From positions 19,158,001-19,222,000 of the forward strand of contig OZ193909.1 in NCBI GenBank assembly GCA_964276515.1: a stretch of DNA of 64,000 bases. Direction: 5' to 3'. The notes under the pieces were generated by a model. It was not told the DNA's origin, ran no database searches, and saw nothing but the letters and a program-made list of their open reading frames with translations. The translations under genes were made by a program, and so were the position numbers. This DNA is from Gordius albopunctatus (lineage: Eukaryota). Positions 24,193 through 60,300 of this stretch are shown in pieces. Position 1 is the first letter of the stretch, and every line of letters starts with the position of its first letter.

Positions 24193-27100
24193 AACGACGG
24201 TCCCAAGTCCGTGTGCAAAAAGTGGAGGGTTGGCGTCAGGTCGGAAACCGGCTATAAAAATCAACTCCAAAATTTATGATAGTTTCAAACGAGATTTTAC
24301 AAGAAAAGGCTAGGGCGTCCTCCACAAACGACGCGCACTGCATACCCCGCCCGTGCAATGTGAAAAATACACTAGGGTTACTGCCCAACTCACAACTAAG
24401 GCGGTTAAGGAAACTAGTTGTGGAAAGAATGCGAATTACGTGCTGGAATGTGGGAACGTTGACGGGGAAGAGCATCGAGGTCGCACAGATGTTAAAAAGA
24501 AGAAAGGTACACATCGCCTGCCTACAAGAGACGAGGTGGAACGGAACGAAAGCTCGGGAATTAGGAGAAGGATACAAGCTTTTCTACAGTGGGTCACCAA
24601 ATCGTAGAAACGGGGTCGGTATCGTTCTAAGCGAATCGTTCAAGGACAAGGTGGTGGAAGTAAAGCGTTGTCCCGACAGGCTAATGTGGGTGAAGATTGC
24701 AGATCAAGGGGGCCTCCTAACCGTTATGTGCGAGTATGCTCCCCAAATTGGGTGTTAGGAATCAGAGAAAGACATATTCTTCGAATCATTGGAAAAGGTA
24801 ATACAAGGAATCCGACAGGAAGAAAAGCTAATTATTGGGGCCGATTTCAACGCTCACGTAGGGAAAGATCGCCTCGGGTATGAACGCAATTATGGAGGCT
24901 ATGGGCATGGTCTGAAGAACAAAGAAGGGGAAAAACTTCTCCAAGTATCCCAAGCATATGACATGGCGATCGTTAACACCTATTTTCAAAAGCGCGAAGA
25001 TCATATTGTGACCTATAGAAGTGGGAAGCATTTTAGTCAAATCGACTATTTGCTTATACGGCGAAAGGACTTATGGAGTATCAAGGATTGCAAAGTAATA
25101 CCGGGAGAAGAAATCGCCAGGCAACATCGTCCCCTTGTTATGGATCTTGACAGAAGAGTATTTTCCGAAAGAAGAAAGGTATATGAACCTCGAATTCGAT
25201 ACGAAAGGCTAAAGGATACGTCGAAGAAACGAAGAATACCATCAAAAAGCCTCCTCACTCTTGGGTGCAAGGAAGTTGCAAAGGGACGTAGACGAAGATT
25301 GGGAGACGCTATCTAAGGACATTAAGGAAACAGCGATTCGTGTTCTAGGACAGACCAAAGGAGGCAAAGCTATGAATAGGGAACTATGGTGGTGGGATCA
25401 ATCGGTTAAAGAATTCATAGAAAGAGAGAAAAATCTATATAGACGGTGGCATAAATCAAAAAAGTCGAAGGATTATCAAGAGTACAGGGACGCAAAGAGG
25501 GCCGCAAAAAAGGCCGTTGCAAAAGCGAAGAATGCTGCGTACACCGAGATGGCAAAGAAACTGGATCATAAAGGGGGCGATAGGCTTATGTACAAATTGG
25601 CCAAGATAAGGGAGAAGAAAAGTCGTTACGGAGTTCTTAAAATAGTCAAAAGCGAGAAGGGTCAAACCTTATTCAAGCCGAAGGAAGTGATGGAAAGGAT
25701 ATTTTAAGAAACTTATGAATATTGCAAATGACAAGGATTCCCTTCCCGAAATTGAGCCAAATATAAGTATGGTCGAACTCTTACAGAAGGATGAAGTTAG
25801 GACACAAATGAACAAGATGCAAAAAGGAAAAGCAAATTGCCCAGATGGAATACCTATGGAAGCATTGCTCGGATGTCGTGAAGAAGGAGTCACCAGCACC
25901 ACCATGACGAACCTCCTTAACAAGATATTGGTAGAAGAGCGAATCCCTAATCAATGGAGAGCAAGCACGATTATACCCTTATTCAAAGGAAAAGGAGACC
26001 CTCAGGACTGCGGCAATTACAGAGGTATCAAGCTAACTTGCCACTCCTTGAAGCTTATGGAAAGAATCATAGTAACAAGGCTGAAAAACGAGGTGAAAAT
26101 ATCGGCTAATCAATTCGGATTCGTGTCCGGCAAATCCACAATCGACCCAATCTTCGCCCTAAGACAAATGATGGATAAGTATGGTGAAAAGAGGAAAGAC
26201 CTACATATGGTTTTTATCGACTTGGAGAAAGCTTACGGTCCCTCGCGATTTAATATGGTGGTGCCTGAGGAAACAAAATACCCCTGACGCATATATACGG
26301 CTTATGAAAAATATCTATGAAGCCTCAAACTCTTGCGTTAGGACGACAGTTGGAGACTCTAAACCTTTTCGGGTTAATATTGGATTACATCAAGGCTCTG
26401 CTTTAAGTCCTTTTTTATTTAATATAATTATAGACACGATAACGAGGGACTTTCAAAAGCCATCGCCATGGTGTATGCTATATGCCGATGATATAGTACT
26501 ATGCGAGGAAACAAGAGAGAAGGTATTCGAAGAAGCAGAAAAGTGGTCAAAGCGCTTAGCTGGATATGGTTTAAAAGTCAACGATCGAAAAACGGTATAC
26601 ATGGAAATGAAGGGTACAAGTAACCCATCGCTGGATGACCACCTAAAGTACCCAAAAGTAGACAGGTTCTCGGCTCTATGCTACATCAAGAGGGAGGTTG
26701 CGCAACTGAAATCAATGCCCGGATTCAAAAAGGATGGCTTAAATGGCGAAGTATATCCGGTGTAATGTGCGACAAAAAAATGCCAATATGGTTGAAGAGC
26801 AAAGCTTACAAATCCATCGTAAGACCGGTGTTACTCTATGGAAGTGAAACATGGGCATTAAACACCACGGAAGGAAAGCTATTACAAGCCACGGAGATGA
26901 GAATGATACGATGGAGCTTGGGGTATACTAAGCTCGACCATATGACGAATGACTTTCTCATGACAAAAATGGGTATTCAACCTATGGCGGACATGATTAA
27001 CGAAAATCGGCTAAGGTGGTATGGGCATATACTAAGAAGGGACCCGGATGACGTAAATCGAAAAGTGCTAGACATGAAAATACCGGGGAAGAGAGGAAGA

Positions 27101-27255
27101 GGACGACCCCGTGTCACGTGGAAAAGGCAAGTCGATAAAGTTATGGAAACTAAAGAGATTCGTCAAGAAATGGCACTCACTCGGTCAAGATGGAAGAAAC
27201 TTATGAAAACAAACCCCACCAATGTGGGACCAAATAACTGATAAAGAAGAAGAAG
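24193..27255 (+). mobile_element. Near full-length RTE-clade LINE nested in the MULE, defective
   Basis: APE and RT split by frameshifts/stops across ORFs 24276-27241; (GAA)n tail; starts within a 5'-clipped twister (AACGACGGTCCCAAGTCCGT...AGTGGAGGG). No clear TSD. Confidence 0.93.
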
Positions 27256-27479
27256 ATATAAGCGAGTCTCGAACTCGCAAACTAAGTTGGAGGAGCTTGC
27301 AACGTAGAGCGTGGACCTATAGAGTTACAAGAAAATGGTTTTTTTTGTTAATATATTAATAGCAAAAATCTTTTTCCTAAAACTATACTTCCCTTTGGCG
27401 CTACTTTCAAATTTAACTTGATGAACATGGAACCTAGATTCTCAGGATATTAGACTCTTGATCCTTATGAATCTGATAG

Positions 27480-36246: not shown

Positions 36247-36313
36247 TGCGTAAGATTCGAGATATACCCATAACAAAAATATTTTTCCATAAGTCAAAAC
36301 CTAAACTTTGATC

Positions 36314-37552
36314 ATGACAACTAATTTAAATTCGTACTCTACTTCCAAAATACCTCAAATATCCTGTCACCAGATCCGAGAAGCGCCTAGCAATCAAAAT
36401 TTAACTCAAGGTCCCACCGCTAAAAGTCTGTCGATTTCTACGAACAATATTAGTGCAGAGGAGATTGATGCTGACGAAAGCGAATATAATAATGCTGATT
36501 TTCACTTAACTTTAGATCCAATTTTGGATTCTTTGAATGGTGAGAGTAGGTGGGGGAGAGGGAGTGTTGACGATTTGGAACCTTATAAAGTACCGCGACA
36601 AAATAGACGGGACCTACAATCACCAAATTCATCTACTACAACCAGTCGATATTACAAATGTGGCAGGGTCCTAAACCCGGACGAACAACAAACAATAAGG
36701 TTGAAAGTTAATTCGCGTGAACGGAAAAGGATGCACGATTTAAATTCTGCCCTCGATGGTCTGAGGGAAGTTATGATTCCTTATTTCAACGGGATGAGTC
36801 AAAAGACCTCGGCTAAAAAAGGAGCTAACTCTGAAGCTTCAACGCTCAGTTCTAACAAATCCTCTCCCCCTCCCAGTAACAGAGGTCAAATCAGGAAATT
36901 GTCCAAAATATCAACGCTCCTACTGGCTCGAAATTATATCCTCATGCTTACGTCCACTTTGAAAGAACTTAAAAAGCAACTGCCCGACGACCTCCCTAAT
37001 CTAGATGAACTTATGGTCGGGTTTAACGATAAAACTTTAGCTAAAAGAATCCCAGAATCCTCTAAAATTAACACGAAAGATCAGAATCTCATGTTAGAGA
37101 GGGGTAATTTGGATGAACAAACACCACTGGAAGATAATAGCAAAAACCAAAGCGGTGAAAGTTTGGAAACCACCGCATCTCATGTAAAGTGTAAAAGTAA
37201 AGATTATTCGATATCAGCCCTCATTGGGAGTAACAATCTAACAACATCCTCGACAAAATCTTTTAAAAGATTAAGACCGTGGGAAATCTCTGAACCCGAT
37301 AAATTTTTTCAGGCCCCCAAAACGATCTCAACAAATTGCAAAGACAAATCAACCACCATCAAACAAACCTATGGAAATCCCTATTTCAACGTATACAATA
37401 ATCCTTCTTATTACCCAATATTGCCCCAATTTTATTTGCCGCACCCTCCGTTTCCTTGCCCTCAAATATTTGGGCAAAATGCGTTCATGCCATCTAGAAC
37501 CAATTTAAATTTATCCACAAATTCATCATCCGTCCTCGAAAAGATGCTTTAA
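36314..37552 (+). CDS. Olig/bHLHb5 (Oli-like) bHLH transcription factor, single exon, ~412 aa
   Basis: [30 protein letters not shown]...[19 protein letters not shown] is diagnostic of the Olig/bHLHe22-23 family. First ATG at 36314; AATAAA at 37622-37627. Confidence 0.92.
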
Positions 37553-39293
37553 ACATATACACACTCGCTTACTATTTTTTTACAATCTATGACATTATTA
37601 TAATTTATTTGAATGATTTTTAATAAATTTTATATGATTTTTAACACGGATTATTAGAAAGTTATACTTAAAATATGAGTTTAAAGTTTTTTTTTATAAT
37701 AAATACTTGTTTTTAGTTTGGATATGGGAAAGGTAACGATTTTATTATAGGTGTTAATGCGTCAAAGAAGCCGCCTTTTTAATACCAATTTTTCAGTGTT
37801 CCTTTGATCTTCTTCAAAGCAACAATGTTCTCATTAATAAACTTAAACAAGCTCTGCTCTGCATGATTGATATATATGTGAACTAATAAAGAATATAAAG
37901 AAATTGCCTTATTAATTTTCACTTTAAATGATTATTAATTTTGTTAATGTTATTTTTAAAAAAAAATAATAGAATTTATTTAAGGAGCCAGCTGGTTGCT
38001 TTATTAAAAATTCAAATCTTTGATTTTTTTAAAGTTTTCTTATGCTTGACGGGAGTTATTGTTTTAAGACACTCATAGTGTGTATCAATTCAAAATTAAA
38101 ATTTTTTTATATATCATAATATCTAAAAAATGATTTTATTAAAACTGGCTACAGATACAGATATCCCCAACTACACTTAAATTAATTATTAAATTAGTTA
38201 AGTTATTTATTGTATATTACTACTAAAAAATCTACTAAATTTATAAATTTATTATATCGAAGAGTTTCAATTTTAATTAGAATTTAATTTCTTTTGCCAA
38301 ATCTGAAAGTTAAAACTGGAATCAATGAAAGGATCATAAACGTAACCAGGTAGAGGCGGCTTCCGCCCTCTAAATCCAATTTTGTCTAATTAAATGTAAT
38401 TATGGCTAAAATTTCAAAAAAATTATTATACTGCCCTGCCTAAATCATATATGCCCCCCTCACTACACCCATTAAGTGTGCCCTAAATGCGCAAAAATAG
38501 TAAGAAAACTAAAATTGAATAGTATGTTGATTTTAAAAGTTTGATTTTCCAAAACCTTAAAGCCGTAATATGTCATAATAACAAAATTTTATTTAAGAAG
38601 ATTTTGACCCTTGTAAATATTATTTTTAAATGATATATTATTGGGAATAATTGAGAGTGATAGAAATAAATAATAATTATTATGTATTATACAAAATGAT
38701 TTGGAATCAAATTAAATTTTTATTAAACCTCGCAACTCACAACCTGTCATTGCAAAAAGTTAGCGAGTCAAATCAACTTATTATATTAAAAAATGCATTG
38801 AGCCCATGCGCGAAGCCAGGTTTTGCATTAGGCCGGGGGGGGGGGGGGCAAAACCTCAATTTTTTTTTAATTTTTAAGGGTATTTGCATTTAAAAATATT
38901 CTTAGTCTTAGGCCAAAATTTGAAAAAATGGTTAATAAATAAATTAAATGGGTTAAATTTTATTAGAGTACAGATGCAAAAAAATTTGAAAATCTAATTT
39001 GCAACGGTCACCTGTCCAACGCTAGGCCGAGAGGGCCCAGTTATTTATTTGATTAACCTTTATTGTGCAAATAAAATTGTCAAAAAATTTTTAACAGCTG
39101 TACCTGCCCCCCCCCTTGAGAAAATCCTGGCTCGCGCTTGTTTAAATTTTATTAATAATTTTGATATAGATTAAAATAGAATATTTTTAAAACGGGTGGG
39201 TTTTGTGTAGTGGACTATTTGGTTTTACTAGTTTTGTATCAAATAAGGAATTTTAAATGTAAAATTATTGTATTCTAAAAGAATAAAAAAATG

Positions 39294-39367
39294 AGGCACC
39301 ACCGAGATTCGAACTCGGGATCTCCTGTTTACTAGACAGGCGCTTTAACCAACTAAGCCATGGCGCC
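39294..39367 (-). tRNA. tRNA-Thr (anticodon AGT)
   Basis: GGCGCCATGGCTTAGTTGGTTAAAGCGCCTGTCTAGTAAACAGGAGATCCCGAGTTCGAATCTCGGTGGTGCCT folds as a complete cloverleaf with A and B boxes; a T7 Pol III terminator follows. Confidence 0.97.
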
Positions 39368-39904: not shown

Positions 39905-40580
39905 TTGTAGGAATAGGAAAGAGGAAAAATATTAAAATTGCAAGAATTTTATTTTTTTTAGTTGTGGCCAAGACCCTTCATAACAGTGGCATAGCCAAGG
40001 GGGGGCGAAGCCGCAAATTTTCTCACCTTCCCTTCTCTCAAGCAAAAATTAAAAAATTTTTATTTTGATTAAAATGAAGTATTAGATAAAATTAGAGTAT
40101 TTATATTTGAATAAAGATAGCTAACTTATATAATCTAGTAGATGTTAGATCTTAACCTGTATATGCCAAAAGGCAAAATTCTAAATCTATTGAGGTTTAT
40201 TTAAATTAACAATTTGTATCTCCTTGATCGAATCCCCTTTTCTGCCCCACTCTAAATCCATGAATTTGTTTAAATTTATTAAAATTATGGCTTGAAATAA
40301 ATTATAAAAATAACTAAGGGACGGGTGGCGAAATCAAGCTTCTTAACTTTATTGGCATTTTCCATATACAATCAAATTAAAAAGTAACAAATTAATATAT
40401 ACTGTCTAAAAAATCTCATTAAACCCGAATAACCCGAATCTTATCATTATGCCCACCCGTGCCCGTCCGAAAACCAAAATTTACGACAGTTGCAGATTCG
40501 GGCAGCGAGCCGGGTCTGGAATTATGGTCTATGATCACAATGCCTCAAGATTTTTATTATAAATCTCATTCTCAAATTTT

Positions 40581-41180
40581 TATTAATTGCTATGCAATTT
40601 ATGGGCTCGCTTTTCGTTGTCCGTCCGTCCGTCCGTCGGTTGTCCGTTACCCAACTTGTATCTACTGATGTGGGTTTGAATCTCGGCTAGGGCAAATTTT
40701 TTTAAATTAATATATTGTTCTTGTAAATACCATTGATAATATGACTTTTTGACCGTGTTCTGGCTACTGACCAATGAAAAAAATGACCATTGGCCACATG
40801 TAAAATGGGTCCCTGTGCCCCCCCCCCCCCTACAAAGGCCTATGCCCTAATGATGTGGGCTCGAATCCCCGCGAGGTCAATTTTTTTTATTTTTTTGTTT
40901 GGAATTAATATATTGTTCTTGTTGATACCATTGATAATATTGGATTTTTGGCCGTCCGCTGGCTGCGGACCAATAGAAAAAATGACCATTGGCCAAAGTG
41001 TGAATCAAATTTTTTTTCGTTTTTTTTGTCTCTTAAGTATTTATATCCTTTTTGACTGTCTCCTGGCTGCTGTCCAATGGAAAAAAATGACCATTGGCCA
41101 AAGTGTATCAATTTTTTTTCTATATTATAAATATAGGCTATTTACCCGTTTGCTGGCTACTGACCAATAAAAAAATGACG
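40581..41180 (+). mobile_element. HINE/DINE-like element, copy C (3' end missing)
   Basis: 5' TTGCTATGCAATTTATGGGCTCG, (GTCC)n, and three ~120-bp units containing ATGACCATTGGCCA. Confidence 0.72.
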
Positions 41181-41950: not shown

Positions 41951-44087
41951 ATCTTAAACATTAATTATTCTGACACTATGGACTAATTACAATAGTTTAG
42001 TAATATAGTAGCTCCTATAATACACAAAACTACACCCACATGCATGACATAAAGGATTGGGAAGGTGGACAATTCTTCGATACTCAATAAAGGGATTAAG
42101 TGAAATTTTAAGGTATCTTCTTAAAACTAATTAATCTAAGCGAAAAAATGTTTTTACCTGATCTTGCTCTATATACCACCAAGAGATATTTTTTTTAATT
42201 TTTGTCGATTTATTTTCTCGGTAAGCACCTTTAAAAAGGGGTAAAAATGCATATTTTCGCAACTTTGAACTTAATTATTTTAAAAACTTGACGTATAGAA
42301 GAAAAAATGTATTTGTGCATACCACAAAATACTCTTCAAAAATATGTTAACCGTGTTCCAGTTGATTTCACAAGACAATTATTTTTTGTCTAAAAAGTTC
42401 ATTTAATTTTTAATCGAATTAAAAATTTAATTTATAAAATCTTTCTTATCATTCTCTCCCGCCCCCGTTAAAATTTGTTGCCGTTCCCCTTCTAAATTAA
42501 ATGAATATACAACCCAAGTTTAGTTTATCTTGATCCTACTCCTCTCGCAGGCGCCATAATATAAAGCACAAATTTCTTTTAATTCTTGCAACATTTTTTA
42601 TTAAAGGGCAATTTTTGTAAACCATCTGTTTTATCAAATGAATCTGATAAAAAAAAGTTGTTAATGCCAATATTAATAGTGTCCTTCATTATATACTTTA
42701 ATAATAATTTAAAAGTACATTTTATATTTTCACAAATAATTCAAACCTAGTATCATAGCTTAATTGCTTAGCTTCTTTTGTTATACCTCGTGTCGTGACT
42801 ATACTTCAACTGCAAATTTAATTGATTTTTTATACCCTGTTATTAATACTCTATTATCCTCAAAAATTTGAAATTTAACTTACAAATTTAATAAACATCT
42901 TTGTTTTTGTTCGATCACTTTAAAAGATTTTGGTTTTAGGAAATGAAAGCTGATATCCATAATATTTTAAATTAGGAGTGAAAAAATGATAAAATTTACG
43001 GATATATATTATGAGTTTTGGAATTTCTATAATTCATCGGACAAACGAATACCATAGGCACTCAACTTCTCCGCTAATTCAGCTAAAAAATTTTATAAAA
43101 TTATTATATTTATTTTTTTCAAAGATTTTTATAAATTTTAAAATTTGATAAATATTATTTAGAACTTTTATTTTTTACCAAAAGTTTGCCATCCTATGAT
43201 AGATTGAAGGAGTACACCATTTTTATAAATATGGGTCCAGGGAACTTGTGTTATTCCATAGTCGTGACACAAATAACCGCTCGAACCGCATTCAACCTTA
43301 AATTTATTAATTTCGAAAATAATTAAAAATAGCAATTAAAAATAATAAATTTGATTATTTAATTAGTGTACAAAATGTTATTATACTTTCCCACAAATCA
43401 ATGATTGATTTTTCTGATTGGCTTTTTGGCAGGCTTGTTCGAGGGTAGGCAAGAATATTTGACAATTGTAACAACTAAACAAAATTGAAAGATATAATTT
43501 GAAATTTTTAATATTCATTTTAGTTAATTTATGGTGGAAGCGGTATCAGAGGTAAGTACAATATTTTTGGGGACAATTGTTTTTTAGCGCGTACATTTTG
43601 CACTAATTTTAGTGTTTTTTGTTTGTTTTTAACATTACTAGTAAACAGGTCTCTTTAACAATTTTTTAAAATGTGTAACAAACATCTATAAACTTCTTAA
43701 CTTATTATATATTAGACTTGTTAGATTTTAAATTGGCTATTATACGGGCGCAGCAAGGATTGGAACTAGACGGGGGGGGGGCAGTAATGCTGCAGGGAGA
43801 GGCAAAATAGTAATTTTTGAAATATATAAGCTATAATTTTTTATCACATTTAAAAAAATTTATGGCTTTAGAGGGAGGGGGCAGCTGCCCTTCCCAGACA
43901 CCCACTGACCACGCCCATGCGCTACTTTTTTCAAAGATATCTCGATTAGAGGTCTGCATGGGCCGGGCCAGCTCGCGGCCCGCAAGCCCAGGCCCGGCCC
44001 TTAACAATAAAAAAGGTACGGGGCGGGCTTCGGGTTTGAAAAGTGAAAATTTTGGAATTATTTATTTTCATACTCTAATTTTAATAT

Positions 44088-47000
44088 TTTCTTTTCTATA
44101 GCTGTTTGTCACATTTAGTGGTCAGCTCCTTCAAGTAGGTTCTCCATGTATTCCTGCACTTACACCAGCTTCGCTTTAGCTTATACCTCCTCAAGTCCAT
44201 ATCTATTTTATGCTTCCATGTCAGTTTAGCTCTCCCTCTCTTTCGATTACCTTCGTCTTGCACTTTCTTGATACGATTTGCCAAGTGATTTTCCTCCCGT
44301 CTCTCCAAATGGCCATACCATCTCAATCTTCTTACCACCAACTTTCTCTGAATTTGAACTACATTTAGTTTATCTCTTATGTCTTGATTCCTTATATGAT
44401 CCTTTTTGCTTATTCCTAAGATCCATCTTAACACTCGCATCTCCATTGTAGCCAAGCTTTGCTCCTTTTTTGCCCTAATTGCCCAGGTTTCCGCTCCATA
44501 CAATACCGTGGGTACAATAATGATGTTATATAACCGTCCTTTCAATTTGAGTGGTATGTGTTTGTCACACAGGACACCACTCAACTCCCTGAATTTTAGC
44601 CAGCCTGCGTTTATTCTTGCCTTAATTTCGTTTTCCACACCTCCATCACATTGTATGTACCCTAGAACCAGGATATTTGAATTCTTTCCTGCTGCTTAAA
44701 CACCAGTCATCGATTTGCAGGTGTGTTTCTTTGTATTCATTCCCCGACTCCAAGCATACATATTCCGTTTTATCACGGTTGACCGTAAGGTCTTTGTTTT
44801 CAATTCGATCCATCCACACTTTTACCTGTCTGCTAATTCCACATTTGAGCCTGCTCGCAGTACTATATCATCCGCAAAGAGCATTGCTTAAAGTAATTCG
44901 CGCTTCAGGTCCTTCCTTATTGAATCCATTATTGTTATGAAGAGCAATGGAGTGGAGTTAGGGCCGATCCTTGATGTATAAGGACATTTAGACTGAATCT
45001 CTTTGATACCACTGGATGTCCGAACTTTGTTTGCGTTTCTATACATATCCTTTATTAACATTATATAAGTGTCGGGTACACCATTGGAACTCAGGCTATC
45101 CCATATCAACTGCCTTGGCACTTTATCAAAAGCTTTCTCAAGATCGATGAAACACATATAAAGATCCTTTTGTTTTTCTTATATACTTCCATAAGTCTCC
45201 TAAGGCTATGAATTGCATCTGAAGTTGACTTTCCAGGCATGAACCCAAATTGTCGTTCACCTATTGATATTATTTTTTGGAGTCTAGCTTCTATAATCTT
45301 TTCCCACACCTTAATTACGTGACTCGTTAACTTTATCCCTCGATAGTTGTTGCATTCTTGTACATCTCCCTTCAATTTATAGATGGGTATAACATAGCTC
45401 TCCCTCCACTCATCAGGCATCATACCACTTCCAAGTATTTTGTTAAACAGCTTTGCAAGTAGATGTACACCTAAGGGGCCTAGCATTTTGAAACCTTCCA
45501 TAGGTATATTATCAGGTCCCATTGCTCTACCTATGGTCATATTTTTAAGCACCTGGTCAACCTCTTCTGTTGTCACTTCTAACTCTGGGTCATATTCATA
45601 GGTCTTGCTTTCGCAGTGGTCCGAAAACACATTTTCACTGTTTAATAATTCTTTATTGTGTTCTTCCCAACGATCTATGATTTGATGGTCCAGAGTTAGA
45701 CTGATGCTTTCCTTGCTCTTTATAGATTTCACGTTTACCACATCCTTTGAGTTTCTTGCTCTGGTCTTTGCGATTTTTAGATCATTCTTTCCCCTTCTTT
45801 ACTGGTTAACTTGGCATTCAAATTTTCGTAGACCTCTGTTTTAGCCTTGGCTATAAAACGTTTTGCCTCATTTTTAGCTTTCGCATATGCCAATCGTGTT
45901 TCTTCATTTCTGTTGCCTGACCATAATTATAAAGCTTTCTTTTCAACTTGACCAGGCGTTGCACATCTTTGTTCCACCACCATGTCTCCTTATATTTTTG
46001 TATACCTGGTTTAACTTCTCCTAGAACACATCTCGCTACTGATCGTACCGTGTTAGCTATGTTATTCCACATATCGTTAGCATTATGCTGATCATCTATT
46101 TGCAACCTTTCAACTATTTGGTCATTGTAAATATCTTTCAATTTTGGTAGTCGGAACCATTTTATTTTTCCATTTAATCTCATCGGATTTTGTGTTTTAG
46201 CCTTGGAGATGGTATAGTACATCACAAAAAGTCTATGCTGGGCTGCAATAGCTTCACCTGGTATCACCTTACAATCTCGTACATTCTTTAATTCCTTTCT
46301 TGATATTAGGAGGAAGTCAATCTGCGAAGATCGATTTCCACTTTTGTACGTTATTAGGTGATTTACATTCTTTTTGAAGAAGGTATTTGTGTTGGCCAAA
46401 TCAAATGCTACGGCTATTTTCAATATTTCGTCGCCTTCATCGTTTCTCCTTCCGTATCCATTTCCACCATGGTACCGTTCAAATCCTTCTCTTGTTTTGC
46501 CTACGTGACCATTCATATCCCCTCCAATTATAACTATCTCAGCTTTGGGTATCATTCGCACCATTTCGTCTAATTCTTCCCGAAATTCCCCCTTTTCTTC
46601 ATCTGTGCATCCTATTTGCGGAGCATATCCGGAAACTACATTAATCATTTGATCTTCTATGCATAGTTTCAACATCATGAGTCGCCCACTTCTTCTTTGT
46701 ACCTCAATGACTTTATCTTGCAGATGGGAAGCTAATATGATTGCCACGCCATTTTTACTCGTCTCTAGACCATTGAAGTAAAGTTTATAGCCTTCACCTA
46801 TCATCCTTGATTTTGCGCCTTTCCATCTTGTTTCCTGTATACACGCAATATTGACCCGTCGCTTGCTGAGGGTGTCAGCAACTTCTCGGCATTTTGCAGT
46901 CATAGTAATCTCGTCTTTAGCAAACTAGTTTCTTTAACTACATCCGTTTTCGCAAGATTTAGTGACCCTCGTTGACTTTTCACATGATACGGGCGCCTAC

Positions 47001-47422
47001 CATGCGCGTCGTTTACGGAGGACGCCCTAGCGCTTTCATTTTTACGAACTTTCATAGTATACATTTTGGTTTATATGGAATGAGAGAGTATTGATATCCC
47101 GGCCTTCCAAGACTGACGTAACTATGTTAGATTTTGGCGCTTGACTACCTACTATTCTTTATGATGCCGTCATTTTGGTGAATTAAACTTTTCTTTAGAC
47201 CACTCGTATTTATAGGTTTAATCTAGCACTTCCATTTCACTAAGTACTCTCTCAAAAAGCTCAGAAATTTTAGTCTGACCCTTCACCAAGAACTTTGTCA
47301 ATAGGGTCACCCCACCAGTAACAAACATAAAAATTGTGTTTGACTACCAAAGGTATAGCTTCATGGATCACGAGAGTACACAAGCTCAACCACCACTACA
47401 AGGTATTTCTGACTCGGTTGAG
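44088..47422 (-). mobile_element. Full-length RTE-clade LINE of a distinct family, defective
   Basis: APE ORF 45851-46903 and RT fragments 44096-45741; 18-bp perfect TSD ATACTCTAATTTTAATAT at 44070-44087 and 47423-47440. Confidence 0.95.
47261..47422 (-). ncRNA. HDV-like self-cleaving ribozyme at the RTE 5' end
   Basis: P1 CTCAACC (47422-47416) / GGTTGAG (47391-47385); P2 TCAGAAAT (47412-47405) / ATTTCTGA (47268-47261); P3 ACC/GGT; L3 TTGTAGT; single P1.1 G-C pair; J4/2 CTAAA with putative catalytic C at 47273; long P4. Confidence 0.8.
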
Positions 47423-49591
47423 ATACTCTAATTTTAATATAGAAACAAAAAAATGAACTTATTAGCTTAATGATAAAAAATTCATTTTTCCAAACAAATC
47501 TGGTGGAACTCAAAAATTATAATGTGAAAAAGTTTGAATGAGATGTATTATAAACTAGTCATTTTTAACCTGGCAAAGATTTAATTGAAAAATTTGAAGG
47601 TATATTACCTTTTGAAAGGGCAAGCATCAAGTTAGAAGCAGATAAGACACCAACACTCTTTAAAATATTACCCTTTTATAACATCATTAAAAAGCATCCC
47701 AAATTTGTTTCCTTCAACTACGTGTAATGATCATCCTGTTGACTTAAAGATCTATCTACAAATTAAAGTCAAGAACCCAAACTATGCTAATTTCAAAGTT
47801 TAATATCGAAAGTTATCATAAAATATCAACCTTTCTTGTTTCTTAGTTTCGCACGATGAAAATTCTACCCGAGTATGAAAGAAACTTCTTAAAAACTACG
47901 GTAAAATTATTTTAAAGAAATCCATGCAAGAAAATCCTGGCTCTTCCGACATAGATCGTCTTGCATAAGTGGTCCAATAATGATTAATCCAGCTCAGGTG
48001 TGCAAAACTAAGCAATTATCTATTTTTTATTTGGGACGATGATGAAACGAAAAAATTGAAGATTTCCACGAACTTGATACATCTTAAATCAAATCTAAAC
48101 CTGAGGATGCTCAGCTGGATGTATTTTTATGGTCGAAACACCAACTTATGTTAGTTACCAAACTTACCAAAATAAGCTAGTCAGTTTTTGTCAATTCCAA
48201 TGGCTACGGCTACGAGTAAACTCACATTGAGTAAGGCAAGTCGTCTTATATAACAGAGAAGAACGAAATTATTGACTGATAGAATTATATACTCTTTTAG
48301 TTTTAAATGAGAATATTAAATTGTAATTTTTAATTAGAACCGATTTTATATGCTATATTTAAATTATTTCACGAACAATACAAAAATATTTTATACAAAT
48401 AAATAATTTTGAAACAGCGTAGACTTGTTTTTACTTGTCCGGGCCTGATGCGGCGCAATTTTTGGGATTTTATTGCGGGCCGGGTGCGAGCCAAAAAATT
48501 TATATTTGTGCGGGTATGGGCTGGGCCGGAAAAATTTCAGCCATGCAGACCTCTATTCTCGACATTAAAGGCTCACTTAATTTAAAATTTATATGGTTTA
48601 TCCTTATGGGTAGCAATAGTAAAATGAATATGAAATTGATTGAGGAAGAAATTGTAATGTTTTACATTTTAGAGGGTTCAAATAATAATAGCCTCAAAAT
48701 GTAACAAAAATTTTGTCAAATTTTAATTTTGAGGGGGATATGGGTGCAACTTCACAAAATTGCTGTTTAATTTTATTAGAATTTTATTAATTTCTGTGAT
48801 AAAACATAGATTTGGTTTTCCTTATAAATTATATATTAAGATCCTTAGGCTATAAAACCCCATTTTTGAAGGAAAATCGTAAAATAGAACTTTGCGTTAA
48901 AATTAAAAACAACTGAGCATAATATAAGTTTTTATTACCCGGCATTGTAAAAAAGGAGGGCAAAATAAGAATCAGAAGCGAGATAGGTTTTAATAGAATC
49001 TCTATCCAAATCCTGGATAAATTGATCACCTTTTACATTGATCACCAAAAGGACAAACAATGAAAAAATAGTTAACATCGAATTAATTTCAAACATGTAT
49101 GCAGCGATAAAATAAGTAAAAATAATGAGGACGATCTAATGTAAATAAACAGAGTTTTACATTTTGGCCTCAAAAACTTTTATTGCTCTGGCTAATACAA
49201 ACACTAAGTAATGTTCCACAACATTTAAGCAAATCAAACCATTTTACCAAATGAAACCATTATAAATTATTTAAAAAAATTTTTTGTTATATTTTATAAA
49301 AAATTTTTAAAATATTTATAAATTAAATGATGATTATAGTTCTTTTGGTTCCAAAAATGTTTGAGCTAAAGTTTCTAAAATAAAGAAAAATAAATAAAAA
49401 ATATAAAAACTATGACAATTATAAATATATTTAAAAATAAATTATTTTCATTAAAAATAATATTATTTACCAAACGTGTATATTCCAGATATATTTTTCA
49501 AATTTACACCATTTTGGTATAATAAGGTCAAAGGTACTCGTTCTATTCTATTTTTAAAGCATAAAGTATGTGCTGAAACGCAATCGATCTT

Positions 49592-49800
<209 letters not shown>

Positions 49801-51690
49801 AACTCGGGCCTTCGACCCTCGTGGGAAGGGGGAAGGGGGAAGGGGGAAAGGGAGGAGGGGAAGGAAGGGGGAACTCATCTACACTCCGTATAAATGTATC
49901 ATATTTGCTATGCAATTTATGGAAATACTTACGTGAATATTGCAAAACGAAGGTTGGAAGCACTAAATAAGTGTATATGCCAAATATCATAAAGGGGGAG
50001 AGAGGGAGCGAAGGGGAAGCTTTATGGTTAGTTAAATTCAACGGGAGTTGTATTACCAAAAAGTCATAATAGCAATGGTAGGAACAGGAACAATCATAAT
50101 AGTCAAAAAAACGAAAAAATAAACTCGGATACACATTTTGGCCAATGGTCATTTTTTTTCCATTGGTCAGCAGCCAGGACACGGTAAAAGTGGATATAAA
50201 TTCATAACAGTCAAAAAAAAAACGAAAAAAAAGTTTTCGAATCACATTTTGGCCAATGGTCATTTTATTCCATTGGTCAGCAGCCAGCGGGCGGCCAAAA
50301 AGTCATAATAGCAATGGTAGGAACAGGAACAATCATAATAGTAAAAAAAAACGGAAAAAATAATTTCGAATCACATTTTGGCCAATGGTCATTTTTTTCA
50401 TTGGTCAGCAGCCAGGACACGGTAAAAGTGGATATAAATTCATAACAGTCAAAAAAAAACGAAAAAAAAGTTTTCGAATCACATTTTGGCCAATGGTCAT
50501 TTTATTCCATTGGTCAGCAGCCAGCGGGCGGCCAAAAAGTCATAATAGCAATGGTAGGAACAGGAACAATCATAATAGTAAAAAAAAACGGAAAAAATAA
50601 TTTCGATTCACATTTTGGCCAATGGTCATTTTTTTCCATTGGTCAGCAGCCAGGACACGGTAAAAGTGGATATAAATTCATAACAGTCAAAAAAAAAACG
50701 AAAAAAAAATTTTCGAATCACATTTTGGCCAATGGTCATTTTATTCCATTGGTCAGCAGCCAGCGGACGGCCAAAAAGTCATAATAGCAATGGTAGGAAC
50801 AGGAACAATCATAATATTCAAAAAAAACGAAAAAATAAACTCGGATACACATTTTGGCCAATGGTCATTTTTTTCATTGGTCAGCAGCCAGCGGACGGCC
50901 AAAAAGTCTTATTATCATTGATAGTAACAAGAACAATCATAAGAGTCAAAAAAAACTCCGGGATTCTAACCCAAAAACTAGATAAATTGCATAGCAATTA
51001 TTAAAAAGTATAGGGTAATTATCAATGTTAACCTATTCAAAAACGAACAAAAAATTTTGATTTATTTGGCCAATGGTAATTTTTTTCAATTATCAATGTT
51101 AACTTATTCAAAAAGGAAAAAGGAAAAATTAGGATTTATTTGGCCAATGTTCATTTTTTCATTGGTCAGTAGCCAGCGGACGGTCAAAAAGTCATATTAT
51201 CAATGGTATTAACAAGAACAATATATTAATTTAATTTAAAAAAAAATAAAAATTTTTGTCCTCTCCGGGTCTCGAACCATCAATTTAGAACGTTCGCAGG
51301 GATTCAAACCCACATTAAATAGAGGCATAAGCCTTTGGAGGGGAACAGGGAACCATATAAATAGAGCCATAGGCCCTTGTAGGGGACGGCATAGGGTAAT
51401 TATCAATGTTAAACTATTCAAAAACGAAAAATTAAAAATTTCGATTTATCTGGCCAGTGGTCATTTTTTCATTGGTCAGTAGCCTGCGGACGGTCAAAAA
51501 GTCATATTATCAATGGTATTAACAAGAAAAAAATATTAATTTAATTTAAAAAAAAAAAAAAAAATTTTGTCCTCTCCGGGTCTCGAACCCGCAACCTCCA
51601 GGTCGGGAAGCTGGTGTAAATAACTTGGTAGACGGACGGACGGACGGACGGACAACCAAAAACGAGCCCATAAATTGCATAGCAATTAAT
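49801..51690 (-). mobile_element. HINE/DINE-like element, copy D, with expanded central tandem repeats
   Basis: Same termini as copies A and B; (GGAC)n at ~51630-51653; an internal extra subterminal repeat at ~50984; flanked by AAAT runs. Confidence 0.75.
50058..50920. repeat. ~238-240 bp tandem repeat (about 3.6 units), each a dimer of ~120-bp subunits
   Basis: AAGTCATAATAGCAATGGTAGGAACAGG recurs at ~50061, 50300, 50537 and 50776. Each half contains CACATTTTGGCCAATGGTCATTT..CATTGGTCAGCAGCCAG. Confidence 0.92.
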
Positions 51691-53034
51691 AAATAAATAA
51701 ATAAATAAATAAATTATTAAATAAATAAATTTACCGTGCCACATTTTAAACCATCAATTACATTAGCCTGTTCCGAACACAGGCGCGTAAATATGGGTAA
51801 TATTTGTTCACTAAACGAACACCTATGCATATTAATTATATATACCAAAACTAGTAATCCAACTCTCAAAAATAACAATTTTTTTTAAAAACATTATACA
51901 TAATTTAAGTTTTTTATTAAAAATACAAATAAATAAATATCAAATATCAGGAAAATTATCAAGAATTGTACTTTAAACGATAATATAGCACGGCAAATTT
52001 AGGATGTGTAGTAATTGCCTCATTCAAACTGTTTGAACTTAGCCGTGGAATAGAATATTCATTTTGTTGAAACGATATATTAATTATAATTGATAATAAA
52101 ACAAGTATTTTCATAAATGTTTGTATAAATAAAATATTTGGGATTTTAAGTATGAATTTTCAATTTTTTTAGGTCAAAACCGAAGGGCTGGATCTAAGAT
52201 CCTTGTATGTTTATTCTATTGCCGCCTGATTGATAGCGTTTATTTATTTAGCCGTTTTTAGATTTACGGAGTGATAAATATAATGCGATTATTTGCTTTA
52301 TGGACCAAATGATATATGCCAGTAAATTATTTTACGAGTCGGAAAATTTATTAATAATGAAAGAAATATTAATAATCATTTAAAAGTTTAATAGCTTTAA
52401 GCTTTCATAAAACAAAAATAATAGAAGTTTAGAAATTTTATTTGGCAATTAGGATGCCAATTTTTGCTTAGGCAAAAGAAAAATATTTGGAAATCGAACA
52501 ACTTCTGCCGATTTTTTAAGAATGTTAATAGCCCTGCCATTAATTATCCAAAGACATTACTTTGAATTTTAGTCAGTTTTAATCAAAGTTATTGGCAATT
52601 ATTAAAGTGAATTTAAATCATGTACAAGCAATATTTATGACATGAGGCACATTAATTTTAGGTTATTAGGGTTTCTAAATAATTAAGCCGTTTGCCATTA
52701 TGATTATTTTTAAAATTGATTATTTGTAGTATAATTTTAGTCTTACAAAAATTTATCAAGTTCAATATTTTTAAGTCAAAACATATCCAAAATTTTTATT
52801 GAGACGAGACCGAGATATTTTTAAGCCAAGACGAGATAAAGATTCTAATAATCGGATCCGATGAAAGATTTCAAGACGAAATTGAACCGCTAAGGAAAAT
52901 CGTTTAATTTTTGTGAGCTCGATTTAATTGAAGTTTTACACAGGTTTAAAATTATTAACTTTGTAATTATATCCCGCAATCAGACCAATAAATCTGATAG
53001 AAATATGACGCTTACCAATAACATGTTTTTAGTT

Positions 53035-53610: not shown

Positions 53611-54364
53611 AAATAAAAAATATTGTTGTTCAGGATATATTTTTGTAGACCTGTTTTATTCTTGGTTAACTAATATTTGACAGAATTGATGTAGCACTTC
53701 GAATGTAATAACATACTGAGATTAGAAACTTGGAAAATTGGACGATATTATTTTCGAGTTATGATCTTAATGCAAAACGCCTATGGTCCTGTCCCGACCT
53801 TAGACTAAATCCTCACCCTGACTATTACTAAGGGTATTATCATATTCATAGAAACTTAAAAATGAATTAAAGATAATTTACATTGCTATGTCACCTTGTT
53901 TAATTTAAATAATTAAAATTAGAATAATATTAAATCCATAAAGAGATCATTGATTTGCAAAAAAGAAGCGAAAATAAAAAATATTAATAATTTAACGAGA
54001 AAGTTAGGGTCTTTTTCTTACTAAGAGTCATAAAACCAACCTAAACAAACTTTTTAGCCTTAAATATTTATATACCTATTTCAGTTTGTTTAAGTTAACT
54101 AATGCGAATTAATATTTTTGAAATATTACTCGTGAATATTAATTTTAAAATTAAATGTTTTTTATTCCATATAAGTTTTTATAAAATTTCAAACGTAATT
54201 GTAATATCATAGACTAATTAGTCTATGTCCATTATATTACTATAATAATTAAGACAATTCCTTTGTAACCACTTATTGTGTGCCAACAGCTGACTTTATA
54301 AACATTGGCATTTTTTCGTAAAAACATATGATTTCGGCCCCTGCAAAGGGAATAGGAGATTTTT

Positions 54365-57300
54365 ATGGATAGGTTCAATAGTCATGTTATAATTGAAAGG
54401 GACAATCAATATACAGTATTAACAAAAGATCCTATTAACCTAATAGCTTTTGGAGATGGCTACACATCCTTAGTATCTAAAAATCGTTTTGTATACTCGT
54501 TTGGTAAGAATGATTATGGGCAATTAGGTGCAAGAAATGACATAAAATATAGAAAGAGCTTAATACTATCATATGAGACAAAAATTGATATTGTCAAAAT
54601 AGTTTGTGGATTAAGACACACCCTAATATTAACATATGATGGTAACATAATTACCTGGGGTGATTCTACATTGGGGCAATGTGGATTTGGTCAATCTGAA
54701 CTTGTTTGCTATCCAAAAAGACTTAATAATTATTCCAAATCAAATTCTGATCAAATATATATTGATATAAGTGTTGGTCCCAATTATTCCTTAGCATTAA
54801 CAAACACTAAAATCATCTTATTTTGGGGATCCTATGGCAAAAACTGTAGTTATGTTCCTGAATTATTATTCAAAACTGATGAATCACATACTTCACCTTA
54901 TGCGCTTGTATCTTTTGACAGTTTTGTTCAGTCGCTATCTACAATAGCTTGTCCTAAATGTTATGAAAACAAGAATATAAACTTGCAAAAATTAAAGATA
55001 TTGGGTAACAATGAGTCCTTGTGTTGTTTTTGCAATAAAACCATCGACAAAACCTCTGACTTAACAAATAAAACCAATAACAACAATATTAGTATATTGG
55101 ATTGTTCAAATTTATGTTTCACAAAATGTATATGTCATCTAACTCAGTTAAGGGTTTGGGAAATAAATCAGAAATCAAATAAATTTGAGGCTAACATGTA
55201 AGTTTTAATAAATTTTCCCTATATTTTTAAAAATATATAGCACCTTGCAATCACTATATTTGAATGATTCATTTTTATATATGGGTATGATCAATAATCT
55301 AAGCATTGGCTTAGGAATGTATGGACTTTTATACATTTGGCAATTTGAAAAGGATGCCAAAAAGCCAATTGTCTTTAAGGTAATGAAACAAGTTAAAGAA
55401 AAAGGATTTTATTTATTTTTTATTTTCAATAATATAATAGCTGTTCTAATATAATTAATAGTTTTTAGATTATCATGTATGGGATTTATGTCTAACAAAG
55501 GAAAAGATATGGTTATCCACCATTGATTGTTCCAAAATGTCAAACATATGCTTATTGTCAATTGATTCAAACACATTAATTGACCATATAATAAACAATA
55601 AGGCAGATGTGAATGCTGTTTTACCATTACAATTTAGTAATATCCCTACTGCTCAATACCATAATGAGGTAAAACTTAATTTTATATATCTAAACACTTA
55701 TTTCTTAATAATTGTAAATATTTTTTAAACTTTTATTTTGTATAATTTAACATCTGTCAAACAATTATTATTCCCCAGCATTATGTTTAGTGTTTAAATT
55801 TAGTTTTTTAAACCAAATAAGCTCTAAATTACCAAATATTTGTTTAAATTGAATTGCATATATAACTTTTTAATAAAGTGTATTTAATAAATATATAGGG
55901 TGGTAGAGGTTTTAAACATTTTTTAACGAATTAAAATTTTATATTTTCTTGCTTAATTACCATTTTAAATATTTAAGTATGTAAATATATTTATTTTTTG
56001 CTATTATTTTTTATGTATGTATGTTTTATTGTTAATTTAGTTTGGAATCCCTTGTGCATATGTGTACCAAAACAATAAATTGGGCATCATAACTCACACA
56101 GTAGTAGAAGAAAAAGAAAAATGTAAAACAAACACCTTAAGCTATAAATTATGGGATGAGCATATACATACATTTGTGGAGCTTGAAATTCTTGCATTGA
56201 CCTTAAATTCATTCCAAACACATTGCTTTCATACCACATCACTAGGTTATTAAAATGCTTTATTGATTTAAGATTATTGATTAAATTTTTCATTATTTTA
56301 TTTAAAAAATCTTTATAATTTGGAAAACTATAAATACAAAACTAGAAAATTAAGGGGTTTATACGAAAACATGTATGATTTTTATATAAAATATTCATAT
56401 ATTTATAATAATTCAATGAATTTAATTTCAAATTTAAACTAATATAAGCTTACATTTTTTCTTAGTTTACATTTATTTAGTTTTATTATTTTGATAACAA
56501 AAATATAGCTGGGATGTGATTAATTAAACAAATGTTACACCTTAAAAATCATAATTAGGAATAAACTTGTTGATAATATTTTATATGAGAATAGCATGGT
56601 GAATAAAATTTAATAATTTGTGATTTTCATATTTGTTATCCAGCTTTCAAAGATGATATAGAAGACAAGGGTAAAACATTCCAAAAATTTGGGCAAAATA
56701 GTCCTGATGTTTCTTTGTTATTTACTCTTTTATGTCAAAAACTAGCCCTTTTATTAGACTCTAATACAAAGATAGCTTTACGTAAGTACATATATTAATA
56801 TTAAAATGTTTAATTTCTAGGTTTAATTGTAAAAAATTAATTGCATAAAATTAAATATTTACAGTAAGAAACATCATATTTGTTTTTGTAATTAAATTGT
56901 TTGTTTATAGCAGAAAGATTAAAAAAGTTGTTTTTAAACAATTCCTAAGTCATTGATAGTTTATTAGCACATGTAATAAAGAAAATTACATTTATATATG
57001 AAAAATATAAAATAGAATTAATATATTGATTTGCTGCGTGTTAAATATACAAAATAATGTCACGGGGTAAAAAACGCAGAAGATTTAATACTTCTTTTGT
57101 TATAATAATAATTCACGTGATTAGATAAAGAACGCAGACGTTCTCTTAATTTAATTCACATTCTTTTTTTCCACGTTCATCTATCCACCAACATTCGTTC
57201 ATTTACTCGCTTAATATCTTCTTTATCAAGTATTGGGTCCCACAGTCGTAGCGTTTGTTTTAATTAGTTTCTCCCATTTTAATCGGATAAGAACGATGTC

Positions 57301-60300
57301 TAAAAAATATTTAAAAAAACGCGCTATAACTAAACGGATGGCATTGATCCGTGTATGGAAATCGTGTTGGATTTAACGATTTACATTGTGATCTTTTGCC
57401 CGATAAAAAAGTATTCTTTCAAATCTAAAGAGACGCTGGAGATCGCTTTTCCAATTTGTTTCAGGAGAGCGAGAGCTTCAACGCCTAAATTTCCAATTGT
57501 GGATTAATGCCATCCGTTTAGTTATAGCGCGTTTTTTAAAAATATTTTTTAGTCGTGTATGTAATTTTTTTTGAGAACGATGTCTTAATTGATTTTCTTA
57601 GCATTCATAGCTGTCCACTTGCCCTTTACGCGTGACACGATGTCGTCCTCTTCCCCGGTACCTCCATGTCCAGTATTTTTTTACATCATTCATCTCCCTT
57701 CTTAGTATATGCTCATACCACCTGATTTTCGTTTATCTAGTTCGTCATAGGTTGAACGCCCATTTTTTCCATGAGAAAGTCATTCGTCATATGGTCGAGC
57801 TTAGTATACCCCAAGCTTCACCGTAATTCTCATCTCTATGGCTTGTAAAAGCTTTTCTTCCGTGGTGTTTAATGCCCATGTTTCACTTCCATAGAGTAAC
57901 ACCGGTCTTACGAAGGATTTGTATGCTTTGCTCTTCAAGCATATTGGCATTTCTTGTCGCACATTGCTCCGTATATACTTCGCCATTTAAGCCATCCTTT
58001 TTGACTTCGGTCATTGACATCAGTTGCGCAACCTCCCCCTTGATGTAATATCAGGCCGAGGTATGTAAACCTGTCTACTTTTGGGTATTTTAGATGTTTA
58101 TCTAGCGATTGTGTGCCTATAACATAAATCTCCATGTATATCGTTTTTTAATCGTTGATTTTTAAACTATATTCAGCTAAGCGCTTTGACCATTTTTCGG
58201 TTTCTTTGAATACTTTTTTCTTTGACTCTTCATTCCATCTGAGCCATTAGCTTATTTTTTACATTTTGTTCATTTGTGTCCTAACTTCATCCTCCTGAAA
58301 GACTACGCCCATACTTGTGTTTACCTCAATATCGGGAAGAGAATCTTTGTCATTTGCAATTTCCTTGAAAGATTCTTTCTGCCTTTGAATAAGGTTGAAC
58401 CCTTCTCGTATCTGACTATTTTAATGACTCCGACATCGCGACTTTTCTCCTCCCCTATCTTGGTCAATTTGTACCAGAGAACGGGCCGGGTCGGGCAACT
58501 GTCGTAAATTTTAACTATCGGGGGGCTTGAGCGGGCACCTTAACAAGATTCGGGCAATTCGGTCTCAATTTTGTTTTTAAAATAATGCATTATATTGTTT
58601 TTTGTATGTTTTGCCACTTTTTAAATTGATTTCATAATGTTTGTTAATCCTAGTTCTCATTAAAAAAAATCAAAAATTAAGATAAAATTTTTAAAAAATA
58701 TAACGATATTAGTGCTAAAAGTTTCAAAACACACCATTTCGGACCGGGCAGTTCGGGGAGCTGGGATAATTCGGGCATTGTCGGGCGGACACATAGAAGG
58801 GTTCGGGCGGGAAGATTAATTATAATATCGGGCCGGGCCGGGTTCGGGCAGAAAAATTCTAACAAATCTGACCTCTGATTTGTGCATAAGCCTGTCACAC
58901 TTCGCCGTTATTGCAACGGCCTTTTTCGCGGCTTTCCCCGTGCTCTTGATAATCCTCCGATTGTTCTATCTCTCTATGAAATCTCTAACCGATTGATCCC
59001 ACCACCACAGTTCCCTATTCATAGCTTTGCCTCCTTTGATCTGTCCAAAAACTCTAATCGCTGTTTCCCTTAGGTCCTTAGTTAGCCCCTTGCAACTTCC
59101 TTGCACCCAAGAGTGAGGAGGCTTTCGGATGTATTTATCGTTGGGTAAGGTATCCTTTAGCGTTTCGTATCGAATACGAACTTCATAAACTTTCCTCCTT
59201 CCGGAAATATTCTATCAAGATCCATAACAAGGAGAGGATTTTTATATCTACCCTTTTACTATAACTCAATAAATTTAATTATTAAAAACTCAAAAGATTA
59301 AATTATAAAAGTATATAAGAAATCGAATAACGTGTTTATCAAGTTTTTTTAATATATAATTGCTCATCCTTTTACATACATAACATGTATATTATTAAAT
59401 TGTGTATTTTTTGTAGTATTTCGTGATGTCATAAATTCGCAACCTAATATCCACGAATTTGTACAAATCTTTATCGAATCATCCACGCTAAACGAATTGT
59501 ATAATATCACTCGTGATGTCATAGAGCATCTATGCAATTTTGTGGTCAGCACTTACAACATCAACCCTGAACTTAATATGATGGAAAAGTGATTTTACTC
59601 TTTTCATTTTGTGTTTATCTCAATAACGAAATTTACGGTCATGGAGTCAAAATATTGTAAATTTTTCAAGAGTTTTCGTTTTTTAAAAAAATATTAGTTT
59701 TATACCTCTGCCTAAGCACACTAACTTTTGAATTGAGCTTAAATATAACTTCATTTAATAATCCTTACAATTTTTGTTTTTATTGTTTAAATTGGTATCG
59801 TAATTGAATTACGTTGAGAAATATGAATAAAATATATTTGGCAAAATCTCTTGATTTTATGTTAAAGTTAAATATATGCTTTTTATTTCATGGGAAAACA
59901 GATTTACTGAAGGATTGCCACAGCTGATTAGATCTTATGTCGGGATAGAGGAATTTGATAAAACCGAACCATTAAATGTTTTTACTTCGGTTACGCTCGG
60001 TATCGTAAGCAAAGCGATATCGGTTATCTTGAATTTCATCAATCACCTCAATGAAGCTTTTGAGATGGAACCATTGTTCTTTGAAATTTCGGAAGGACAG
60101 AAGGTTAAAAATTTATAAAATTGTTTTTAGAAAGTTAAATTATAGGAGTGTTTGTAAGTTTATGTATTATATAACGGAGAACAAATTGTTGTGTTCAGTA
60201 TTTAATTCAATTTTTTCTCAGTAGAATAATCAAATGCTCAGTAAATAATTTAATGTTCAGTAATTTAATTATTTTCTCAGTAATTAATTCATTTGTTCAG

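Follow-up and report, generated by a model that had tools for sequence, protein, structure and literature searches.

A 162-nt fold of the HDV-like ribozyme class begins at the first base of an RTE-type retrotransposon copy on the minus strand of the window (the whole 64,000-nt stretch analysed here). The feature is real and most likely a working 5′-end ribozyme of the element family. Its parts and those of the host element are located as follows, in window positions:

47261..47422, minus strand: HDV-like ribozyme fold of 162 nt, with predicted cleavage 5′ of C47422 (from complementarity and copy junctions)
47416..47422, minus strand: 5′ strand of P1, beginning with C1 and pairing with 47391-47385, first pair C-G
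47405..47412, minus strand: 5′ strand of P2, pairing with 47268-47261
47392..47404, minus strand: P3-L3-P3, with U47401 and G47396 at the reverse-wobble positions and G47399 as the P1.1 partner (from the sequence and the positions in PMC6326823, in part)
47383..47391, minus strand: 3′ strand of P1, then C47384 (P1.1, flipped G-C) and U47383
47274..47383, minus strand: P4 domain of 110 nt, with a predicted 12-nt linker, 6-bp P4 stem and two hairpin arms (from prediction and family letters)
47269..47273, minus strand: J4/2, CUAAA, in which C47273 is the predicted general-acid cytosine (equivalent of HDV C75)
47244..47251, minus strand: 8-nt segment complementary to 47379-47372, a candidate post-cleavage switch or attenuator helix (from fold prediction)
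44088..47422, minus strand: RTE-type non-LTR retrotransposon copy, full-length and decayed
47423..47440, minus strand: 5′ copy of the 18-bp TSD
44070..44087, minus strand: 3′ copy of the 18-bp TSD
44096..47064, minus strand: broken single ORF, APE endonuclease followed by reverse transcriptase

All three core helices are uninterrupted: P1 (47422-47416 with 47391-47385) consists of 7/7 Watson-Crick pairs, P2 (47412-47405 with 47268-47261) of 8/8 and P3 (47404-47402 with 47394-47392, ACC/GGU) of 3/3, while J1/2 is 3 nt long. In the 7-nt L3 (47401-47395), positions 1 and 6 are U and G, and G47399 of this loop can pair with C47384 as a single G-C P1.1 flanked by U47400 and U47383; these two likely form a U-U pair, by analogy with CPEB3 (PMC9901934, in part). 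Between C47384 and C47273 lie 110 nt, after which come CUAAA and the 3′ strand of P2. The class order P1-P2-P3-L3-P3-P1-P1.1-P4-J4/2-P2, a nested double pseudoknot, is thus reproduced by sequence complementarity at 47261-47422, together with the 7-bp P1, the 3-bp P3, a P2 of at least 5 bp, a C opening J4/2 and followed by A residues, the U...G of L3 and a P1.1 of one to two pairs. The preliminary description had read the region as a nested HDV-like double pseudoknot with a 7-nt P1 opening on an L1Tc-like C1-G pair, a P3/L3 keeping the U...G reverse-wobble positions, a perfect 8-bp P2 after a J4/2-like CTAAA, a single swapped G-C P1.1, a P4 of about 110 nt and a putative catalytic cytosine at C47273. 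Base for base this reading holds, with U47401 and G47396 at the wobble positions, G47399 opposite C47384 and C47273 opening CUAAA. Position 5 of L3 is A47397, where HDV-type descriptors fix C. In the large P4 domain, a candidate 6-bp stem (47370-47365 with 47281-47276) follows a 12-nt linker, which is atypical, and a rival hairpin is predicted in the window copy. Hairpin arms are predicted at about 47358-47310 and at 47309-47283, the P4 stem and the second arm having been picked after the variants were seen. The P4 helix of this class stacks under P1.1 and is dispensable in minimal HDV-like forms.

The host element is a LINE copy of 3,335 nt (47422-44088), decayed and carrying frameshifts and stops. 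It is bounded by an exact 18-bp repeat (47440-47423 and 44087-44070; at 19 bp the sequence no longer matches twice), which agrees with the earlier proposal of an 18-bp TSD with the fold starting at nucleotide 1, C47422 being the first base of the element. The likely start of the ORF is the ATG at 47064 or 47055, giving a 5′ UTR of approximately 360 nt. Pieces of the ORF matched the endonuclease and RVT_1 models of Pfam, both below the curated cut-offs, and among 87 longer homologues many were APE+RT proteins, mostly of ~950-1,050 aa and on contigs of 3-3.9 kb. Members of the RTE clade are about 3.3 kb long and have a single ORF encoding APE and then RT, a TSD and a short-repeat tail in place of poly(A). 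Part of this definition is given in PMC8501958 (in part), and the element at 44088-47422 shows the length of ~3.3 kb, the single APE-RT ORF, the TSD and the short-repeat tail. By its sequence the element is therefore of RTE architecture, in a comparison that covered relatives without named RTE references. At 46907, near the edge of the compared stretch, about 30 contigs per run depart from the window sequence and share a common continuation, which suggests that the window copy lacks some sequence where the endonuclease domain begins.

Eight public runs from four studies contain part of the region, none of them recorded as RNA, and copies were compared from six; the runs with the best coverage may include the source of the window itself. 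The element family is abundant, with 5,477 contigs matched from run X1 alone. Loose ends of contigs at 47422 and 47423 numbered 19 and 16 in X1, 7 and 7 in X6 and 1 and 2 in X7, to which X3 and X2 add 12 and 14 at 47422 and X8 adds 1 at 47423; junctions at other positions are also present, with 608 and 219 rows beyond those listed. Flanks of the copies agreed at 0.45-0.55 in X1, X2, X3 and X6, and such disagreement fits independent insertions. In X1 the summed depth drops from 483,731 (47414-20) to 1,078 (47428-32), and in one X7 contig the first 19 nt are present twice, the duplicate likewise beginning at C1. From the junctions at 47422/47423, full-length RNA would start at a defined C1, set either by cleavage or by transcription start. 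A cut 5′ of 47422 had been predicted beforehand and the copy junctions do pile up there; this fits self-cleavage as the process that sets the 5′ end, and a promoter starting at the same base would look alike, the junctions alone not separating the two. Ribozymes of the HDV-like class cleave themselves 5′ of P1 with the help of Mg2+ and leave a 5′-OH, and the junctions would fit such a cut.

According to the mechanism that we favor, and which is claimed for the whole family, the first 162 nt of the element likely cut themselves just before C47422, and the self-cut would release the element RNA from a host transcript running into the element. Extrapolating from HDV chemistry, P1-P1.1-P4 would stack alongside P2-P3, C47273 would protonate the leaving group, Mg2+ at the L3 U-G wobble would activate the 2′-OH of the host's last base and the 5′-OH of the product would be buried in the fold. 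Because the cut would lie upstream of the ribozyme, reverse transcription would copy the ribozyme into each full-length insertion, so that new copies would begin at C1. Cleavage with such a core has parallels: L1TcRz cleaves before C1 with one P1.1 pair (PMC3185411, in part), ribozymes with a U:A P1.1 have been crystallised and are fast (PMC13635239), and the single T1 pair of CPEB3 showed compensatory rescue (PMC9901934, in part). More speculatively, 47251-47244 may pair into the P4 linker after the cut, thereby refolding the 5′ UTR in the manner suggested for L1Tc, where a downstream segment is able to do this (PMC4035085, in part). The 8-bp helix concerned (47379-47372 with 47251-47244) is strongly predicted once downstream sequence is present, with a pair probability of 0.79 in the 1-183 fold, and family variants keep it by one-sided changes only.

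The same 5′ end could alternatively be set by an internal promoter at base 1, the fold then mainly shielding the RNA end or helping translation, with little or no cutting in vivo. C1 copy junctions do not tell transcription start from cleavage, and the first 77 nt of L1Tc (Pr77) are both promoter and ribozyme, with the promoter starting at the same base (PMC3185411, in part); moreover, an HDV fold aids R2 templates even without self-cleavage (PMC11331408, in part). We nevertheless consider this explanation unlikely, as the positions of the catalytic C and of the U-G wobble are kept, a review describes RTEs as being without promoters of their own (PMC6765202, in part) and relatives have twister, a different class of self-cleaving ribozyme, in the same place, an indication that selection acts on the cutting.

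The family-majority letters, in that they repair pairs of the window copy, support the favored reading. Among the positions listed, the family majority differs from the window copy within the ribozyme at 47363, 47343, 47328, 47308, 47298, 47294 and 47261, and downstream at 47250; none of the listed positions falls in 47364-47422, core variants outside the listed positions being possible. In four cases the majority letters restore pairs, namely U-G to C-G at 47343 and C-A to C-G at 47328, both lengthening a hairpin that is already predicted from the window copy by itself, and G-G to C-G at 47308 and C-A to C-G at 47294 in the P4 model; those at 47363 and 47298 affect no tested pair. The G that the family majority has at 47261 leaves the outer P2 pair intact, as either U-G or C-G. 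That some copies have C rather than U in this pair is suggested by the X7 duplicate and by contigs (9 in X1, 10 in X3) whose loose ends at 47411 open with G. Tallies in X1 showed that C is not the family majority at L3 position 5. The window copy hence combines an intact core with damaged P4 arms. A competing hairpin (47309-47303 with 47282-47276, probability 0.8-0.99) captures the 3′ strand of the proposed P4 stem in this copy, and since the majority C47308 would break that hairpin, the window copy probably folds worse than its active ancestor. When downstream sequence was included, the pair probability of P2 fell under the listing threshold of 0.25 and rival helices dominated, in predictions that allow no pseudoknots; plain folding energy, from a program of the same kind, was unremarkable (z -1.23).

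These predicted rival helices and the folding score, along with the long linker and the departure of A47397 from the conserved C, would speak for a relic of an ancestral HDV head that has lost its catalysis or cleaves very slowly, in which case the full-length start would stem from history or from a reverse-transcription stop. Such a relic seems to us quite improbable, given that the family is very abundant, that its majority keeps every core pair seen and that R2 ribozymes tolerate wide core variation except at five positions (PMC3774820, in part).

When a loose descriptor was run that accepted P1.1 in either orientation, a J1/2 of up to 250, a P4 of up to 300 and G-U pairs, the two strands of the window together gave one match, at 47422, whereas dinucleotide-shuffled windows gave 0.25 on average; a search of this kind, allowing a swapped P1.1, had been suggested in the preliminary description. 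The strict form, with an all-Watson-Crick 7-bp P1 and 8-bp P2, had no match in 60/60 shuffles. A chance arrangement of pairings in an AT-rich 5′ UTR, in favor of which stand the 0.25 loose matches per shuffled window and the silence of Rfam, is therefore dismissed as extremely improbable, the strict form being absent from all 60 shuffles, the match sitting at base 1, the homologous position of a relative (L083) being a recognised HDV-like ribozyme and the same core recurring in phages. HDV-type families of Rfam gave no match at E<=1 in the window or at E<=10 in 281 nt, and the fold departs from a published descriptor (G1-Y, C-G P1.1, C at L3 position 5, CRRA J4/2; PMC6326823, in part) in its C1-G, G-C, A47397 and CUAA. 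The expectation that it would be invisible to standard descriptors is accordingly correct for Rfam and for that descriptor; the miss is however not specific to the swap, because Rfam also missed 4/5 canonical phage candidates.

Relatives of the element were studied at 92 loci with an APE alignment, the metagenome part consisting of the best 80 matches. The Rfam twister-P1 model matched 18/59 loci searched, always below its gathering score and with many contigs lacking the 5′ end. Among the matches listed, an HDV-like fold was present in 2/80 loci with enough upstream sequence (L042 and L083, both canonical), and the flipped core in 0/80 of the RTE relatives scanned. Supporting the favored reading, the closest relative among the matches listed, L083 (57% APE identity), has an Rfam-recognised HDV-like ribozyme at the same place: its 5′ UTR is headed by a drz-agam-1 match of 42.7 bits (gathering 37) with the same ACC/GGU P3, and its P1, P2 and P1.1 differ from those of the window element, yet are paired. 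The contig with this canonical ribozyme (L083:231-310) and the RTE fragment that it heads is 1.2 kb long and belongs to a bacterial MAG, probably as eukaryotic contamination. L042 (104-345) has a canonical HDV-like fold with a J1/2 of ~130 nt and no Rfam match. In trees built on the APE rows of relatives, L042 is nested beside twister-headed elements in a separate, well-supported group, and monophyly of the three HDV-headed elements was rejected by an AU test (21 rows; p 1.2e-6), which implies that heads changed class more than once. A sister relation of the window element and L083 was not supported (FastTree 0.36; open fork), and an origin of the flipped core from the type of L083 is thus not claimed. 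Blastn of the 5′ UTR against 81 loci matched the N-terminal coding motif and not the ribozyme; MAFFT produced no alignment of the window, L083 and L042 ribozymes and misregistered P1 among the phage folds. The single viral RTE-like locus (L001) had no ribozyme match. At two loci (L045:659-861 and L050:950-1152), a snoZ102/R77 snoRNA is followed after ~40 nt by the start of a twister-headed RTE; a target preference, or a single insertion recovered twice, may lie behind this.

The window itself holds a second RTE family at 19192-22278 on the plus strand (region 19177-22293, 15-bp TSD). A twister-P1 match of 41.4 bits (19187-19241), under the gathering score, spans its first base, and part of P1 would accordingly come from host bases of the TSD, as it does in Perere-3. 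A related twister-motif copy on the plus strand (24193-27256) is 69% identical to it, with no TSD found; the 3′ end of this copy is duplicated at 22976-23488 (97%) and fragments occur at 57217-59242. These RTE elements have a common nucleotide motif at the ORF start and unrelated sequence upstream. Relatives are headed either by twister, as is this sister family in the window, or by a canonical HDV fold, and the head therefore resembles a module that can be exchanged.

The flipped core was also searched for in viral contigs, where the pattern scan yielded 120 loci from 9/64 parts and a canonical control scan 122 loci from 17/64 parts, the sequences inside each phage set being partly related. 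P1 was in register in 22/109 distinct flipped cores versus 3/327 shifted controls. Fifteen of these 109 had both P1 and P2, and 11 also the C of J4/2, their first pairs being C-G (8), G-C (2) and G-U (1); of 115 canonical cores, 21 had P1, 8 P1 and P2 and 6 also the J4/2 C, with G-U (4) and A-U (2) as first pairs. When G was fixed before C in another scan, which overlapped with the first, 16 of 92 cores passed as folds. The phage flipped folds have the G-C P1.1 and the same J4/2 as the window fold, and L3 position 5 is C in all 11 and 16 passing folds, though the pattern allowed A. This recurrence of the flipped core in phage contigs, with P1 and P2 covarying, supports the favored reading. Rfam matched 0/12 flipped and 1/5 canonical phage folds. 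The base at -1 was never G in the 11 and 16 flipped folds and was A in all 6 canonical ones; these small, related sets are compatible with an advantage of the flipped core whereby nothing but a G at -1 could invade the C that follows P1. The compact flipped-core folds of viral contigs are found at L098, L101, L127, L132, L136, L140-L142, L144, L189, L196, L208 and a subset of L336-L447. Several lie shortly upstream of apparent gene starts, and that of L101 directly after a tRNA-Arg.

HDV-like ribozymes at the 5′ ends of RTEs were reportedly described by Ruminski et al. in 2011. The RTE drz ribozymes (Rfam drz-agam-1) resemble the window fold in element clade, position and predicted role; L083 and L042 have G1 and a C-G P1.1, whereas the window fold is flipped and matched by no Rfam HDV model. 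CPEB3 has G1 and the C-G orientation of P1.1, so that relative to it P1.1 and the first pair of the window fold are reversed, and the window fold has in addition a large P4 and a retrotransposon context. Both have a 7-nt L3 starting with UU and one Watson-Crick P1.1 pair plus U-U (PMC9901934, PMC7026644; both in part). HDV-like heads on RTEs (PMC6765202, PMC3774820; both in part) and twister heads of RTEs (PMC8501958, PMC7761336; both in part) have each been reported. Twister (T-variant) heads such as that of Perere-3 are likewise self-cleaving and adjoin the TSD; they are of another class, and their P1 borrows host bases, while the window HDV fold lies wholly inside the element (PMC8501958, PMC7761336; both in part).

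A close likeness in core design is to the ribozymes of L1Tc/ingi/SIDER of trypanosomatids (PMC3185411, PMC4035085, PMC3383444; all in part), which share the location at base 1 of a randomly inserting LINE, C1, a single P1.1 pair, an L3 purine with a post-P1 pyrimidine, CUAA in J4/2 and a downstream refolding segment. SIDER sequences have A at L3 position 3 and U after P1, and L1Tc primers have U after P1 and a CUAA J4/2; the flipped polarity, a purine in L3 with a pyrimidine after P1, hence has an active precedent, with A-U. The window fold has the C1 first pair, the single purine(L3)-pyrimidine P1.1 and the CUAA J4/2 of this type, and differs in having G-C instead of A-U in P1.1, A at L3 position 5, a branched 110-nt P4 rather than a short one and an RTE host element in another eukaryote, and in being a predicted fold compared with active ribozymes. 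Theta and minimal phage HDV-like ribozymes also have the ACC/GGU P3 and the CUAA J4/2, and the flipped phage fold directly after a tRNA recalls the placement of theta ribozymes (PMC10879173, in part). In the searched part of the tRNA-linked theta table of that report, two canonical cores occurred 9,767 and 463 times and three flipped cores 0 times. In the accessible literature, which comprised few subscription papers and mainly texts with some of their supplements, a natural G-C P1.1 was not found; a printed example may exist, for instance in R2.

HDV-like RTE heads, P1.1 pairs other than C-G and flipped polarity all have precedents, and the basic biology of ribozyme-headed LINEs is already established. 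The window fold falls within the structural definition of HDV-like ribozymes and most likely works like L1TcRz and the RTE drz ribozymes. We also put forward, with rather more doubt than conviction, a wider proposal: an unrecognised active subclass of flipped-core HDV-like ribozymes (C1-G over G-C, reversing together) may exist in phages and eukaryotic LINEs, missed by Rfam and by descriptors of G1 and C-G; in RTEs, twister, canonical and flipped heads may be modules that replace one another ahead of a single conserved N-terminal motif, also inside the same genome; and the downstream helix may be a post-cleavage switch. If the flipped core is active, counts of HDV-like ribozymes are biased by descriptors fixing G1 and a C-G P1.1, and nature offers a way to ask if a joint flip of the cleavage-site pair and P1.1 is required. 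One genome would hold two RTE families using different ribozyme classes for 5′-end processing, and with two head classes side by side the idea that the element needs the cut, not the fold, becomes testable by head swaps.

Elsewhere in the window, the stretch 49595-51700 holds an AAAT microsatellite (52 copies) and then a tandem repeat with a 239-bp unit (3.5 copies), and relatives of the 239-bp repeat occur at ~3100-3520, 10600-11160 and 40580-41180. Another RT-bearing element lies at 5069-7203 and an integrase fragment at 13383-14556, and there is a weak M13 peptidase match at 1659-2159. Further features are a bHLH exon (36305-37552), an RCC1-repeat exon (54356-55201) and a tRNA-Thr(AGT) gene on the minus strand (39293-39367).
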